Positions 8,875-12,993 of a DNA stretch of 64,000 bases are shown piece after piece. The translations under genes and the position numbers were made by a program. Each line of letters opens with the position of its first letter. Position 1 is the first letter of the stretch. Source of the stretch: an uncultured Ruminococcus sp. (GTDB lineage: Bacteria > Bacillota > Clostridia > Oscillospirales > CAG-272). The notes beneath the pieces are model-generated. The model was not told where the DNA came from. It worked only from the letters and a program-made list of their open reading frames with translations, and made no database searches. Location: contig CAZUYA010000001.1 of NCBI GenBank assembly GCA_964624685.1, positions 7,744-71,743 of the forward strand, in the 5' to 3' direction.

Positions 8875-10254
8875 ATGATACGAGAATACAGAACCATTGA
8901 AGAAGTTGCCGGTCCTTTGATGCTGGTCAGACAGGTAGACGGTGTTAAGTACGATGAACTCGGAGAGATCGAATTGCCGAACGGTGAAATCCGCCGATGT
9001 CGTGTGTTGGAAGTCAACGGACGCAATGTGTTGGTACAGTTGTTTGAGTCCGCGGCTGGAATCAATCCTGCAAACAGTAAAGTGCGGTTTACGGGACATG
9101 GTGTGGAGTTGCCTGTTTCCGAGCATATGTTGGGGCGGGTGTTCAACGGAATGGGGGAACTCATTGACGGCGGCGCGCGGATCCTTCCGGAAAAAAATTT
9201 GGATATAAACGGAACGCCCATCAATCCGGCAGCACGGTACTATCCATCCGAGTTTATTCAAACGGGAATTTCCACCATTGACGGATTGAATACATTGGTA
9301 CGCGGACAAAAGTTACCGATCTTTTCCGGTTCCGGACTTCCGCATGCCAATCTTGCCGCGCAAATTGCCAGGCAAGCCAAAGTCAAAAATCGGGATGACA
9401 AATTTGCGGTTGTGTTTGCCGCTGTCGGAATTACCTTTGAGGAAGCAGATTTCTTTATTTCCGATTTTAAGAAAACGGGGGCGATTGATCGTACCGTTTT
9501 GTTCATCAATTTGGCATCGGATCCCGCAATCGAGCGAATTTCCACTCCGCGTATGGCTTTGACTGCCGCCGAATATTTGGCATTTGAACGTGACATGCAC
9601 GTGTTGGTCATTCTGACGGATATTACCAACTATGCCGAGGCATTGCGTGAGGTTTCGGCGGCGCGAAAAGAAGTTCCCGGGAGACGAGGATATCCGGGGT
9701 ATTTGTACACCGATTTGGCTACCATGTATGAGCGTGCGGGCAGAAAAATGGGATCGAACGGTTCCATTACCATGATCCCGATTTTAACGATGCCGGAAGA
9801 TGACAAAACGCATCCCATTCCGGATTTGACCGGTTATATTACGGAGGGGCAGATCATTCTTTCCCGTGAAATGTATCGGAAAGGCTATTTGCCGCCGGTC
9901 GATGTTTTGCCGTCTCTTTCCAGACTCAAAGATAAAGGAATCGGCGAAGGAAAAACGCGCGAAGATCACGCCGCAACCATGAACCAGCTCTTTTCCGCTT
10001 ACGCACGTGGCAAGGAAGCCAAAGAATTGATGGTTGTTTTGGGTGAGGCTGCATTATCTCCGATCGATCGATTGTATGCAAAATTTTCCGATGCATTTGA
10101 GGCAGAGTATATCAATCAGGGCTTTTATGAGAATCGCTCAATCGAGCAAACTTTGGATCTCGGATGGAAATTGCTATCCATTCTTCCAAAGAGTGAGATG
10201 AAGCGCATCAAACCGGAAATGATTGAAAAATACTGGCCGAAAGAAAGTGAGTGA
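8875..10254 (+). CDS. ntpB: V-type ATP synthase subunit B
   Basis: N-terminus [16 protein letters not shown]; also has [33 protein letters not shown]. Confidence 0.97.
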
Positions 10255-10256
10255 CT

Positions 10257-10940
10257 ATGGCTGAGATCAGAGTGAACCCCACGCGCATGGAAATGAAACG
10301 GATTCAAACACGCTATCAAACCGCGCGGAAAGGACACAAGTTGCTCAAGGACAAGCGGGATGAGCTGATGCGACGCTTTTTGGAAGTGGTGCGCGAAGAT
10401 CGGCGATTGCGGGAACGAGTAGAAGCGGCATTGACGGATGCGTACCGTTCTTTTACCGTAGCCAGTGCCGTCAGTAGCCCCAAAATGCTTTGGGAAGCAC
10501 TGATCTGTCCCAAGAAAGAAGGGGAATTGGCAGTTGAATATAAAAATGTCATGAGTGTAACGGTTCCTGCGTTTGAACTCAAAATGTTGACGCATGGAAA
10601 TGATGATCACTGTAATTACGGGTTGGCATTTACTTCCGGAGAATTGGACGCTGCTTTGAAAGATTTAAGCGGCATCATGGAAGATATGATCCGCATGGCA
10701 GAGTTGGAAAAAACGGCGCAACTGTTGGCAGAGGAGATTGAACGTACCCGTCGTCGTGTCAATGCGTTGGAATATATTTTAATGCCGCAATATTTGGAGA
10801 CAATCAAGACCATCAAAATGAAGTTGGACGAAAACGAACGTGGCAATACAACACGTTTGATGAAAGTTAAAGATATGATGATCCGTGCACAACGATCACC
10901 ACACGATGCCGGAGACGATGATGCAGAGGAGGCAACGTAG
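10257..10940 (+). CDS. ntpD: V-type ATP synthase subunit D
   Basis: N-terminus MAEIRVNPTRMEMKRIQ, with a long coiled coil and an RRRVNALE motif. GTG 10251 is an alternative start. Confidence 0.93.
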   Translation: MAEIRVNPTRMEMKRIQTRYQTARKGHKLLKDKRDELMRRFLEVVREDRRLRERVEAALTDAYRSFTVASAVSSPKMLWEALICPKKEGELAVEYKNVMSVTVPAFELKMLTHGNDDHCNYGLAFTSGELDAALKDLSGIMEDMIRMAELEKTAQLLAEEIERTRRRVNALEYILMPQYLETIKTIKMKLDENERGNTTRLMKVKDMMIRAQRSPHDAGDDDAEEAT

Positions 10941-10976: not shown

Positions 10977-11014
10977 CCTTCCGCCATACCTTATGGTATG
11001 GCGGAAGGGTTTTG
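10977..11014 (+). terminator. Rho-independent terminator of the V-ATPase operon
   Basis: A perfect 14-bp stem pairs ccttccgccatacc with ggtatggcggaagg, with loop ttat, followed by gtttt. Confidence 0.8.
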
Positions 11015-11064
11015 AAAGTAGGCTTCATGCCCAAACAAAAAATCAGAAAGAAACGGAGAAAAAC

Positions 11065-12858
11065 ATGAGTACCAACGTATCAAAGGCAAAGCGCGAGGCG
11101 TTGACGGAGAAAATCAAAGCCATCAAGACCTACATCGCAACCGCGCCGCAGGATGAGCATACGGCACAGCTTTTGCAATACGTTGCAGACATCGAGCGGG
11201 ACATCAAGGGGAAGAAATACGGACTGGTTTTTGAGGAACATCGAGAAGCCATCGACGAGATTTTGGAAACGCACGTTCCCGTTTTGACGGAAGACAAGAA
11301 CTTGTTGATCGACAACGGCGGGCAGATGAATTTCCTGATTGAAGGCGACAATTTGGCAAGCTTGAAACTGTTGGAGAAAACACATAAAGGCAAAATTGAT
11401 TTGATTTACATTGATCCGCCGTACAACACGGGAAACAAGGATTTTGTTTATGATGATAGTTTTGTAGACGGCGACGATGCTTTCCGACACAGTAAGTGGA
11501 TTTCCTTTATGTATCAAAGACTTGAAGTCGCAAAGCAACTCATGACAGATGAAGCAGCGATTTTTATCTCCATTGATGATAATGAACAAGCTGCATTAAA
11601 ATTGTTATGTGATGACATATTCGGTGCGGATAATTTTATGGGCACCATCATTCAAAACAAAATGAATGCAAAAAACGATACCGTAAACATTCAAAAAAAT
11701 CACGAGTATATTCTTGCATACAGAAAAAAATCAATTTACATCAGTGGGTCTCGTATAAAACCAACGTTATTGTTGATACAAAAAAAATATCGTCCTGTCG
11801 TGCAAGAAGGTGAACGATACTATTACATTGGAGAGGCGATTACAACACGAGGCGTCGGCGGAACATTGAATGCTCGTCCGAATTTGGGATACACAATATA
11901 CTACAATCCCATTACAGCAGATAAAGTTGCTGTTGCCGATTACGATATAGAACTCGCACGAATATCCAATAAAGCAGATGAAATCTATCATCACGATGAA
12001 ACGTATATTTCACGCGGATACATTCCGATTTTACCGCCAAAGGTACGTGGCAAATTGGGATGTTGGACATGGGCATTGGAAAAATTTAATCAAGAAACCG
12101 ATAACATTTTGATTACAGGGAAATATCCGAACTACACGGTTAAAAAACGTACATTTGTTTCTGCCGAAAGCATTGTGGAAAGAGACGGAAAACTGTTTTA
12201 TATTTCCATAGAACAAAGCAATTCCAGAAGTGTTTTAGAGTTTTCCACAAACGACGGAACAAATACGCTTACAAACGTTATGGGAACAAAAGCGACGTTT
12301 AGTAATCCTAAAAATCTTGAAATGATACAATATCTTGTTTCGTTAAAGCAAGAGAAAGAGGCAACCATTCTCGACTTTTTTGCCGGCAGCGGAACAACGG
12401 GACACGCGGTGATGAAGTTGAATGCCGAAGACGGCGGGAATCGAAAATTCATCCTTTGTACCAATAACGAAAACAACATCTGCCGTGATGTGACCTATGA
12501 ACGCATCAAACGTGTGATTGCCAAAGAGGACTACAAAGCAAGTTTGAAGTATTACAAAGTGGATTACTTGCCCACGTCGGACAAATTCTATGACGAATAT
12601 GCCGATGACTTGCTGTTACATGTCAAAGAGTTGGTTGAATTGGAAAATGCGATCCGCTTTGACGGCAATTTCGAAGTTGCCATCCTTTTGACCGATGAAG
12701 AGTTGGACGAGTTTGTATCGGCAATTCCGGACGATTGCCGAATTGTTTATTTGGGTTACGACGTTTTGCCGTCGTCAGAACAAGAACAGTTGCTTGCCGC
12801 GCGCCGCGTGGAAATCAAATGGATTCCGGATTATTATTACAGCGACTTGGAGGGGTAA
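11065..12858 (+). CDS. Site-specific DNA methyltransferase, beta-class N6A/N4C, type III Mod-like, with no Res partner
   Basis: Motif IV DPPY lies at 11413-11424 (IYIDPPYNTGNKDFVYDD). It sits upstream of motif I FFAGSGTTGHAV at 12376-12393, which is the IV-TRD-I order. The N-terminal KYGLVFEEH box and the C-terminal tail are typical of Mod proteins. ATG 11065 has a GGAG RBS. Confidence 0.88.
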   Translation: MSTNVSKAKREALTEKIKAIKTYIATAPQDEHTAQLLQYVADIERDIKGKKYGLVFEEHREAIDEILETHVPVLTEDKNLLIDNGGQMNFLIEGDNLASLKLLEKTHKGKIDLIYIDPPYNTGNKDFVYDDSFVDGDDAFRHSKWISFMYQRLEVAKQLMTDEAAIFISIDDNEQAALKLLCDDIFGADNFMGTIIQNKMNAKNDTVNIQKNHEYILAYRKKSIYISGSRIKPTLLLIQKKYRPVVQEGERYYYIGEAITTRGVGGTLNARPNLGYTIYYNPITADKVAVADYDIELARISNKADEIYHHDETYISRGYIPILPPKVRGKLGCWTWALEKFNQETDNILITGKYPNYTVKKRTFVSAESIVERDGKLFYISIEQSNSRSVLEFSTNDGTNTLTNVMGTKATFSNPKNLEMIQYLVSLKQEKEATILDFFAGSGTTGHAVMKLNAEDGGNRKFILCTNNENNICRDVTYERIKRVIAKEDYKASLKYYKVDYLPTSDKFYDEYADDLLLHVKELVELENAIRFDGNFEVAILLTDEELDEFVSAIPDDCRIVYLGYDVLPSSEQEQLLAARRVEIKWIPDYYYSDLEG

Positions 12859-12875: not shown

Positions 12876-12920
12876 AAAAGAAAAAGGTTTGACGCGAAAA
12901 GTGTCAAACCTTTTTCTTTT
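12876..12920. terminator. Bidirectional hairpin between the methyltransferase gene and tRNA-Gly
   Basis: Stem aaaaaggtttgac (12881-12893) pairs with gtcaaaccttttt (12903-12915). It has an A-run on one side and a T-run on the other. Confidence 0.75.
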
Positions 12921-12993
12921 GGAGCAGATGACGGGAATCGAACCCGCGTATTCGGCTTGGGAAGCGGACACTCTGCCATTGAGTTACATCTGC
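12920..12993 (-). tRNA. tRNA-Gly (anticodon CCC)
   Basis: I folded the 74-nt cloverleaf by hand. The acceptor stem GCAGATG/CATCTGC is perfect. The anticodon loop is TTCCCAA, the T-loop is TTCGATT, and the CCA end is encoded. Overall it resembles E. coli glyU as I recall it. There is one C:C mismatch at positions 29:41. Confidence 0.88.

Follow-up and report, generated by a model that had tools for sequence, protein, structure and literature searches.

The DNA analyzed here (the window) is a stretch of 64,000 nucleotides (nt) from a contig of an uncultured Ruminococcus sp. Its subject is mod, an intact open reading frame (ORF) whose product, judged from sequence and predicted structure, is the Mod subunit from a restriction-modification (R-M) system of type III, a β-class N6-adenine DNA methyltransferase. 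The ATG is preceded, at a distance of 8 nt, by a GGAG ribosome-binding site. The gene is wedged between the terminator of the V-ATPase operon and a convergent tRNA-Gly gene (Table 1), as a preliminary description of the region had stated. Only 61 nt separate its stop codon from the tRNA, and this space contains no res gene and is too short for any other ORF. A Rfam scan of the region identified the tRNA and no other structured RNA. No assembly break hides a res gene at this locus, since it is well within a 121-kb contig, more than 50 kb from the nearest scaffold gap, which falls past the end of the window. The locus thus lacks the adjoining res of a complete type III R-M system, and the gene can therefore only methylate here.

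Table 1. Features of the mod locus in the window and of related sequences on other contigs of the host genome (C11 to C76). Positions are those of the window unless a contig is named; aa, amino acids.
Feature	Position	Strand	Remarks
V-ATPase D gene (ntpD)	10251–10940		upstream neighbor of mod
V-ATPase (ntp) operon terminator hairpin	10977–11008	+	perfect 14-bp arms, 4-nt loop; left border of the mod unit
5′ leader of mod with GGAG	11012–11064	+	conserved, common to paralogous mod copies
mod	11065–12858	+	597 aa; predicted type III Mod, β-class N6-adenine DNA methyltransferase
N block (resident)	11065–11424	+	N-terminal helical domain (NTD) up to motif IV
Motif IV, DPPY	11413–11424	+	aa 117–120; catalytic; also the putative left recombination breakpoint
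Central cassette	11425–12375	+	motifs V–VIII, target-recognition domain (TRD), motif X; low G+C at third codon positions; unique within the host genome
Motif I, FFAGSG (FxGxG)	12376–12393	+	aa 438–443; S-adenosylmethionine-binding; also the putative right recombination breakpoint
C block (resident)	12376–12858	+	motifs I–III and C-terminal α/β domain (CTD, ~12523–12855)
Two-way terminator hairpin	12876–12920	.	perfect 18-bp arms, 9-nt loop, A/T runs on both sides
tRNA-Gly(CCC)	12920–12993	−	ARAGORN; Rfam tRNA 65 bits; convergent with mod, 3′ end abuts the hairpin
mod copy	C61:172–1668		complete, 498 aa
mod copy	C76:1–1207	−	5′ part and cassette
mod copy	C11:1–109		5′ start only
mod copy	C22:3–542		3′ part
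mod copy	C34:20187–20561	−	3′ part
mod copy	C52:10191–10526	−	3′ part
Family res	C61:7044–8966	−	640 open codons; other strand from the C61 mod, ~5 kb away

The product of mod matches the Pfam family N6_N4_Mtase (PF01555; 4e-33, covering residues 111–466), and MTase_III is the best of the PADLOC models for type III methyltransferases (2e-122). Its sequence matches in the Protein Data Bank (PDB) are the Mod proteins of Helicobacter pylori (6K0W, 9e-47), Mycoplasma bovis Mbo45V (7DSU, 7e-44) and EcoP15I (4ZCF, 6e-39). An AlphaFold2 model from an alignment with 31 homologues (predicted local distance difference test score, 82.8; predicted template-modeling score, 0.71) consists of N-terminal helices, a split methyltransferase core, an inserted β-rich TRD and a C-terminal α/β domain. 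The same three Mods are its top folds in Foldseek, with full-length alignments, including one onto EcoP15I Mod chains 4zcf_A and 4zcf_B (E-value of 2e-24). All motif residues that are invariant among the 31 aligned homologues are retained, and the motifs DPPY and FxGxG stand in the Mod order at exactly the positions given in the preliminary description. The motif order IV-TRD-I, the similarity to proven Mods and the four-domain architecture are those of a type III Mod. On the same basis, the protein is predicted to be enzymatically active and to form N6-methyladenine.

Comparison with paralogous mod copies found elsewhere in the same genome divides the gene into three parts. Nucleotide identity is 87–100% from the start codon to DPPY, falls to 32–68% across the central cassette, recovers to 92–97% at FxGxG and remains at 77–95% up to the stop codon. 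The left switch occurs at DPPY, past which identity drops from 87% to 57% within one window. At the protein level, residues 1–120 are 91–94% identical to the copies on C76 and C61 (single 60-nt windows are up to 100% identical in nucleotides), compared to 82% for the best outside sequence and 86% for the best among the related genome loci. Residues 121–220 are only 45–50% identical to the paralogs and 84% identical to the best outside sequence, while residues 221–410 and 411–437 have no match among the paralogs and outside matches of 82% and 85%, respectively. Residues 438–486, which are conserved across the family members compared, reach 98% inside and 100% outside the genome. The CTD (residues 487–597) is 90–95% identical to the copies on C22, C34 and C52, and at most 66% identical to any outside sequence. 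Likewise, synonymous divergence (dS) from the paralogs reaches saturation in the cassette, compared to 0.25–0.38 in the N block. The gene is thus a mosaic, since its closest relatives differ from segment to segment. The preliminary description had proposed such a segment-wise comparison, and its expectation was borne out, as the N-terminal end and the CTD are closest to the paralogs and the middle is closest to an outside protein (P0002).

The breakpoints fall on motif-coding sequences and the centre and flanks disagree in their relationships, as expected of motif-mediated cassette exchange. The exchanged unit would be the whole stretch between motifs IV and I, which is larger than the TRD alone. 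Along the parts of mod outside the cassette, the copy to which it is 100% identical changes from patch to patch, which points to ongoing gene conversion among the mod copies. The cassette of P0002 is 82–85% identical in protein and 77% in DNA, and it belongs to a sub-lineage with a Res of another type. The same type of cassette is also found on a very different scaffold (P0032), with identities of 46% at the N-terminal end, 67–70% in the cassette and 36% in the CTD. In the host genome, no cassette recurs at two loci. The closest cassette among the genome loci (78%) is that of L071 (G058:C19:191271–193064, from the metagenome-assembled genome (MAG) "Bacillota bacterium OH_SFB_13"); this locus has three in-frame stop codons (TGA, TAG and TAA) and is probably a pseudogene.

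Base composition changes at the same two motifs. The central block has a G+C content of 36–37%, compared to 45–47% at the ends of mod and 46.3% in the genome, in which 1.0% of 790-nt windows have a G+C fraction of 0.363 or less. In 120-nt sliding windows, G+C is 0.50–0.53 at 11060–11240, 0.30–0.35 at 11540–11780 and 12080–12380, and 0.48–0.50 at 12320–12500, which agrees with the hand-counted samples of the preliminary description. The low-GC block reported there (11570–12360) is real, but it begins at motif IV (~11425), ~150 nt further to the left. It was also assigned there to the segment between motifs IV and I, in which the TRD sits. The G+C content at third codon positions (GC3) is 0.64 for 11065–11424, 0.34 for 11425–12375 and 0.57 for 12376–12855, whereas that of the first and second positions is 0.39, 0.39 and 0.41. 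As the contrast lies wholly in third codon positions, amino-acid composition was rejected as the source of the low G+C. An unsupervised scan for the best low-GC3 window of 317 codons returned 11431–12381, with a GC3 difference of 0.27. No drop of this size occurs in any of the 333 other long ORFs, in which the 99th percentile is 0.148 and the maximum 0.251. The GC3 of long ORFs in the host genome is 0.51 ± 0.05.

We compared the gene with 80 related loci from a genome collection, of which 65 were used for GC3, 56 were checked for res and 60 served for correlations between Mod and Res. GC3 is lower in the middle than at the ends in 63 of the 65 loci, which come from many phyla, with a mean deficit of 0.126. 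Among loci L015–L094, the GC3 of the middle ranges from 0.16 to 0.45, while the end blocks follow the G+C content of the host. The closest cassette relative, in another host (L127), has GC3 values of 0.63, 0.28 and 0.56 in the three segments. A low-GC3 middle is thus a general property of this Mod family, which we had not seen stated before. From this signature, the cassettes appear to circulate in a low-G+C gene pool of their own, which might turn over faster than it adapts to its hosts. Horizontal replacement of the specificity domain, as put forward in the preliminary description, is consistent with a mosaic whose middle is unrelated to the paralogs; that it was recent is not shown, because the low-GC middle is family-wide and nucleotide identity to the closest known cassette reaches only 77%.

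The host is represented by a MAG that totals 1.77 Mb on 81 contigs, with a completeness of 87% and an estimated contamination of 1.6%. Judged by V-ATPase B similarity, it is an uncultured gut member of the Clostridia/Eubacteriales, and its nearest named relatives are "Candidatus Apopatosoma" and "Ca. Avispirillum" MAGs. Protein and DNA searches of its contigs located further mod sequences on six of them (Table 1). The preliminary description had called the gene solitary, which is true of the locus but not of the genome, as the latter holds at least four more mod copies and one family res. Two complete copies (that of the window, on contig C1, and that of C61) lie inside contigs, and all others are fragments that end at contig ends. 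There are at least five and at most seven mod genes, because the two complete genes are accompanied by three unmatched 3′ ends. Similarity to the paralogs begins at 11012, just past the V-ATPase terminator hairpin; the leader is shared with C76 from 11037 on, and the 109-nt match on C11, 98% identical, corresponds to the leader and the first 55 nt of mod. The copy on C61 has a diverged C-terminal tail. The fragments are flanked by different, ordinary chromosomal genes of host-like G+C (e.g. alaS, pgk-tpi and a lysine riboswitch), and the contig breaks are those expected of a short-read assembly at repeats that are 82–98% identical. In other genomes with this Mod family, one copy is the rule and three is the maximum. 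None of the 24 same-genus species has a close homologue of mod.

Substitution patterns indicate that mod is under purifying selection. The ratio of nonsynonymous to synonymous divergence (dN/dS) between the window gene and its paralogs is 0.18–0.20 for the N block and 0.045–0.07 for the C block and the CTD fragments, at dS values of ~0.25–0.9. The median for the CTD of relatives linked to res is 0.10. As the ratio in the CTD is at least as low here as in the res-linked relatives, the copies that lack res are not relaxed.

Most members of the family are accompanied by res. An ORF of 585–743 residues follows within ~110 nt of the mod stop codon at 42 of the 56 loci checked, mostly with ~730 residues and at a distance of 4–13 nt. 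In the closest homologue, this ORF matches the Pfam DEAD/ResIII families and the module reads AbiEii-DUF6650-Mod-Res followed by three small genes. About 10 of the 56 loci have no res, so such members are not rare in the family; G066:C19 likewise carries a solitary Mod. In a Clostridiales MAG (G063:C8:203355–210480), two family mods stand in tandem upstream of one res, as in Mycoplasma. In the host genome, no res lies downstream of mod at any of the five 3′ ends observed. One family res is present on C61, with the motifs DESH, SAT, QTIGRIRR and PD...ETK and a PADLOC REase_III match (1e-16). Its product is 80–81% identical to Christensenellaceae-type Res and 62–65% identical to the Res of the cassette-type relatives. 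The contig end cuts this gene at about residue 90, leaving the Walker A part outside the MAG; a low-stringency tblastn search of the MAG did not find the missing N-terminus, and the end of C61 overlaps no other contig (C76 and C63 do share a 55-nt overlap). The preliminary description had named a cognate res just outside an assembly break as evidence against its proposal, and the C61 gene comes close to this, but the break is not at the mod locus. Three other ORFs scanned among the ResIII hits are RecG, PriA and a Lhr-like helicase and were rejected. No other type III res was found, with a ResIII ORF on C4 judged UvrB-like by eye and a weak hit on C2, below the cut-off, falling outside the scan.

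Across 60 loci, the identity of the CTD to that of the window Mod tracks the identity of Res to the resident Res (Spearman rho 0.89, p 3e-21). The correlation is weaker for the NTD (rho 0.67), and for the cassette and the motif I–III segment it is not significant (0.12–0.17). The two ends of Mod and the resident Res therefore stem from one module lineage, and Christensenellaceae-type modules are the nearest relatives of both the scaffold of the window Mod and the resident res.

The surroundings of the copies were examined for signs of mobility and switching. An integrative element at the tRNA-Gly gene was rejected, as the vicinity has neither an integrase nor an att-like direct repeat of the tRNA end. 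A 17-nt stretch of the mod coding region (12429–12445, encoding the conserved EDGGNRK) shares 88% identity with the 3′ portion of the tRNA gene (12926–12942), which we take to be due to chance. Phase variation was also rejected, as Tandem Repeats Finder detected neither tandem nor simple repeats within or ahead of the ORF and the longest homopolymer is A8 at 11780. At the second complete copy (locus L209), mod is preceded by an apparent tRNA 3′ end, cut by the contig start, and a terminator hairpin (C61:1–171). Thus, two mod copies adjoin tRNA genes. A lysine riboswitch (C61:1764–1933; Rfam, 84.9 bits) follows this copy, ahead of a gene for a membrane protein of 563 residues. In addition, a dispersed intergenic repeat of ~35–65 nt with the core ...GCGTGTGCGGCGCAACGCGCCTTCTCCCACTA... 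is found at no fewer than a dozen sites of the host genome, on C11 (114–180, just upstream of the mod 5′ end), C39, C2, C25, C15, C72, C3, C6, C32, C10, C49 and C55, sometimes twice within 250–450 nt. With a related piece downstream of the C52 mod end, the repeat flanks two mod copies. It has no match in Rfam and could be an element resembling repetitive extragenic palindromes or miniature inverted-repeat transposable elements.

Based on these results, we consider it probable that the window gene is a res-less type III Mod with an exchanged cassette and one of a dispersed, lineage-specific set of paralogs. A lineage-specific expansion would have given rise to at least five dispersed mod genes in a genome of ~1.8 Mb. 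All copies would share a scaffold, consisting of the 5′ leader, the N-terminal dimerization domain up to motif IV and the region from motif I through the CTD, which recombination or gene conversion between copies would keep alike. Each copy would carry a different cassette between motifs IV and I and, presumably, recognize a different target sequence. The cassette of the window gene may derive from a different, horizontally circulating sub-lineage, in which mod is paired with res, often in an AbiE-DUF6650-mod-res array, and it would have kept the low GC3 typical of family cassettes in nearly every host. By analogy with EcoP15I, the protein is expected to form a Mod2 dimer whose TRD selects a short asymmetric site and which methylates a single adenine in it. 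It would probably serve to widen the methylation repertoire, for self-protection or as a reservoir of alternative specificities.

Several points weigh against this interpretation. The closest known cassette, with identities of only 77% in nucleotides and 85% in protein, neither points to a donor nor dates the exchange. An insertion or allelic replacement is not directly visible. No same-species strain was found by an exact-protein look-up or by a metagenome scan with NtpD, which returned at most 82% identity, nor was an empty site found in relatives; because the gene order downstream of ntpD varies in six same-genus species, no clean insertion site can be defined. Between the strong V-ATPase terminator and the start codon there is only a weak promoter-like match. 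Lastly, most paralogs are contig-end fragments of a MAG, so the copies may not all share one cell and their number (five to seven) is a bracket.

A stronger claim, compatible with the exchanged-cassette reading, is that the single res on C61 serves all dispersed Mods in trans, which we regard as possible but doubtful. The nearly identical CTDs would dock the same Res, and the nearly identical NTDs may permit mixed Mod dimers. Mod of EcoP15I dimerizes through its NTD, and its extensive contacts with Res are made mainly by the CTD (PMC4490356). The C61 gene is the only type III res found in the scan, and its visible 640 codons are open and carry the motifs named above. Among the parts of the res-less copies, the CTD is under the strongest constraint; it is far more alike inside the genome than to anything outside, and of all parts of Mod it correlates best with Res. 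That correlation, however, reflects shared descent and not binding, and the mod copy on C61 itself has the diverged C-terminal tail. The res cut by the contig end may be broken or interrupted. Moreover, the extra mods of Mycoplasma adjoin their res, whereas those of the host are dispersed, and the failure of any one Mod would be lethal, which speaks against a stable arrangement. A dispersed "one Res, many Mods" system, with NTD and CTD kept uniform by gene conversion, imported cassettes that differ, one res used in trans and perhaps mixed dimers, is thus put forward only tentatively.

The preliminary description proposed a retained orphan Mod and named CamA as an orphan that can act as an epigenetic regulator; on this reading, mod would encode a true orphan methyltransferase kept for regulation, in the manner of CamA, Dam or CcrM. 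The intact ORF, purifying selection and absence of res at the locus are consistent with this role, and solitary Mods occur elsewhere in the family as well as in H. pylori. However, the gene is not conserved among the 24 same-genus species, most family members have res directly downstream, and a family res exists in the genome, although cut by a contig end. Recent paralogs with differing cassettes suit a diversifying defense or immunity function better than regulation through one fixed motif, and a repeat tract for phase variation is lacking. A regulator of this kind therefore appears unlikely.

Less likely still is an assembly or binning artefact, in which the paralogs are alleles of other strains or organisms and the real genome has a single mod. 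The incompleteness and estimated contamination of the MAG, and the fact that all but two copies are contig-end fragments, would fit this explanation. On the other hand, each fragment runs into different chromosomal flanks of host-like composition, the two complete copies lie inside contigs, and breaks in repeats of such high identity are a normal outcome of short-read assembly. In addition, the copies are closer to each other (90–98% at the ends) than to any outside sequence retrieved from a collection of 5.8 billion proteins or from the 80 genome loci. The possibility that mod is a decaying, inactive remnant of a type III system after loss of res, as the missing res, the weak promoter match and the three stop codons of L071 might suggest, is very improbable given a fully open frame with all invariant motif residues kept, dN/dS values of 0.05–0.2 against the paralogs at dS 0.25–0.9, and a confident model with all four Mod domains.

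Type III Mods without res and swapped recognition regions are well documented, and the window gene taken alone is ordinary. What goes beyond this is an exchange unit sharply bounded by motifs IV and I, with a synonymous-site composition unlike that of the rest of the gene, and a ~1.8-Mb genome with at least five mods of concerted ends and different middles, an unusually large dispersed set. Furthermore, the domain that contacts Res in EcoP15I is strongly constrained in every res-less copy and tracks the only res of the genome; a conserved docking domain in such copies is what a shared, trans-acting Res would need. If Res were shared, one nuclease would restrict DNA missing any of five or more methylation marks. 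A small genome would thereby multiply its restriction specificities cheaply, as a combinatorial barrier from one nuclease gene, and the rules of Mod-Res docking would become testable.

CamA of C. difficile, Dam and CcrM are conserved across a species or clade and have one fixed motif. The window mod resembles them as an adenine methyltransferase without a neighboring nuclease gene, but is absent from 24 related species and part of a diversifying multi-copy set. The modA genes of Haemophilus and Neisseria have N- and C-terminal regions that are conserved, around a hypervariable centre, taken as the TRD, and undergo horizontal exchange (Bayliss 2006, PMC1557822). In contrast to the window gene, which lacks a repeat tract, these phasevarion genes are alleles at one locus, linked to res or decayed res, and are switched by repeat tracts. 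Mods of the EcoP15I/EcoP1I type (PDB 4ZCF) share with it the β-class order IV-TRD-I, the motifs DPPY and FxGxG and the four-domain layout. The window Mod is only ~22% identical to EcoP15I Mod and has no res beside it. The family Res, with ~730 residues, is also shorter than that of EcoP15I (~970 residues).

Type III loci of Mycoplasma (M. pulmonis; M. bovis Mbo45V, PDB 7DSU; M. hyorhinis SK76) combine one res with several mods (bioRxiv 10.64898/2026.05.01.722158; PMC13736764). As in these species, the small host genome holds several mod paralogs but a single res, and Mbo45V Mod is among the best solved relatives of the window protein. Their mods cluster by res and several are truncated or switched by repeats, whereas those of the host lie on six contigs at unrelated loci, with two complete copies intact and no repeat tract. 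In H. pylori, the TRD moves between non-orthologous mod loci by recombination at sequences encoding conserved methyltransferase motifs (PMC3467074), and a solitary Mod without res is found at its locus 0 (Furuta & Kobayashi 2012, PMC3467074). Several mod loci, motif-sited exchange, disagreement between TRD and non-TRD trees and a res-less Mod are thus common to both. They differ in that no cassette occurs at two loci of the host genome, and in that the parts outside the cassette, which are not conserved between orthologous groups in H. pylori, are 90–98% alike between loci of the host, a pattern of concerted evolution.

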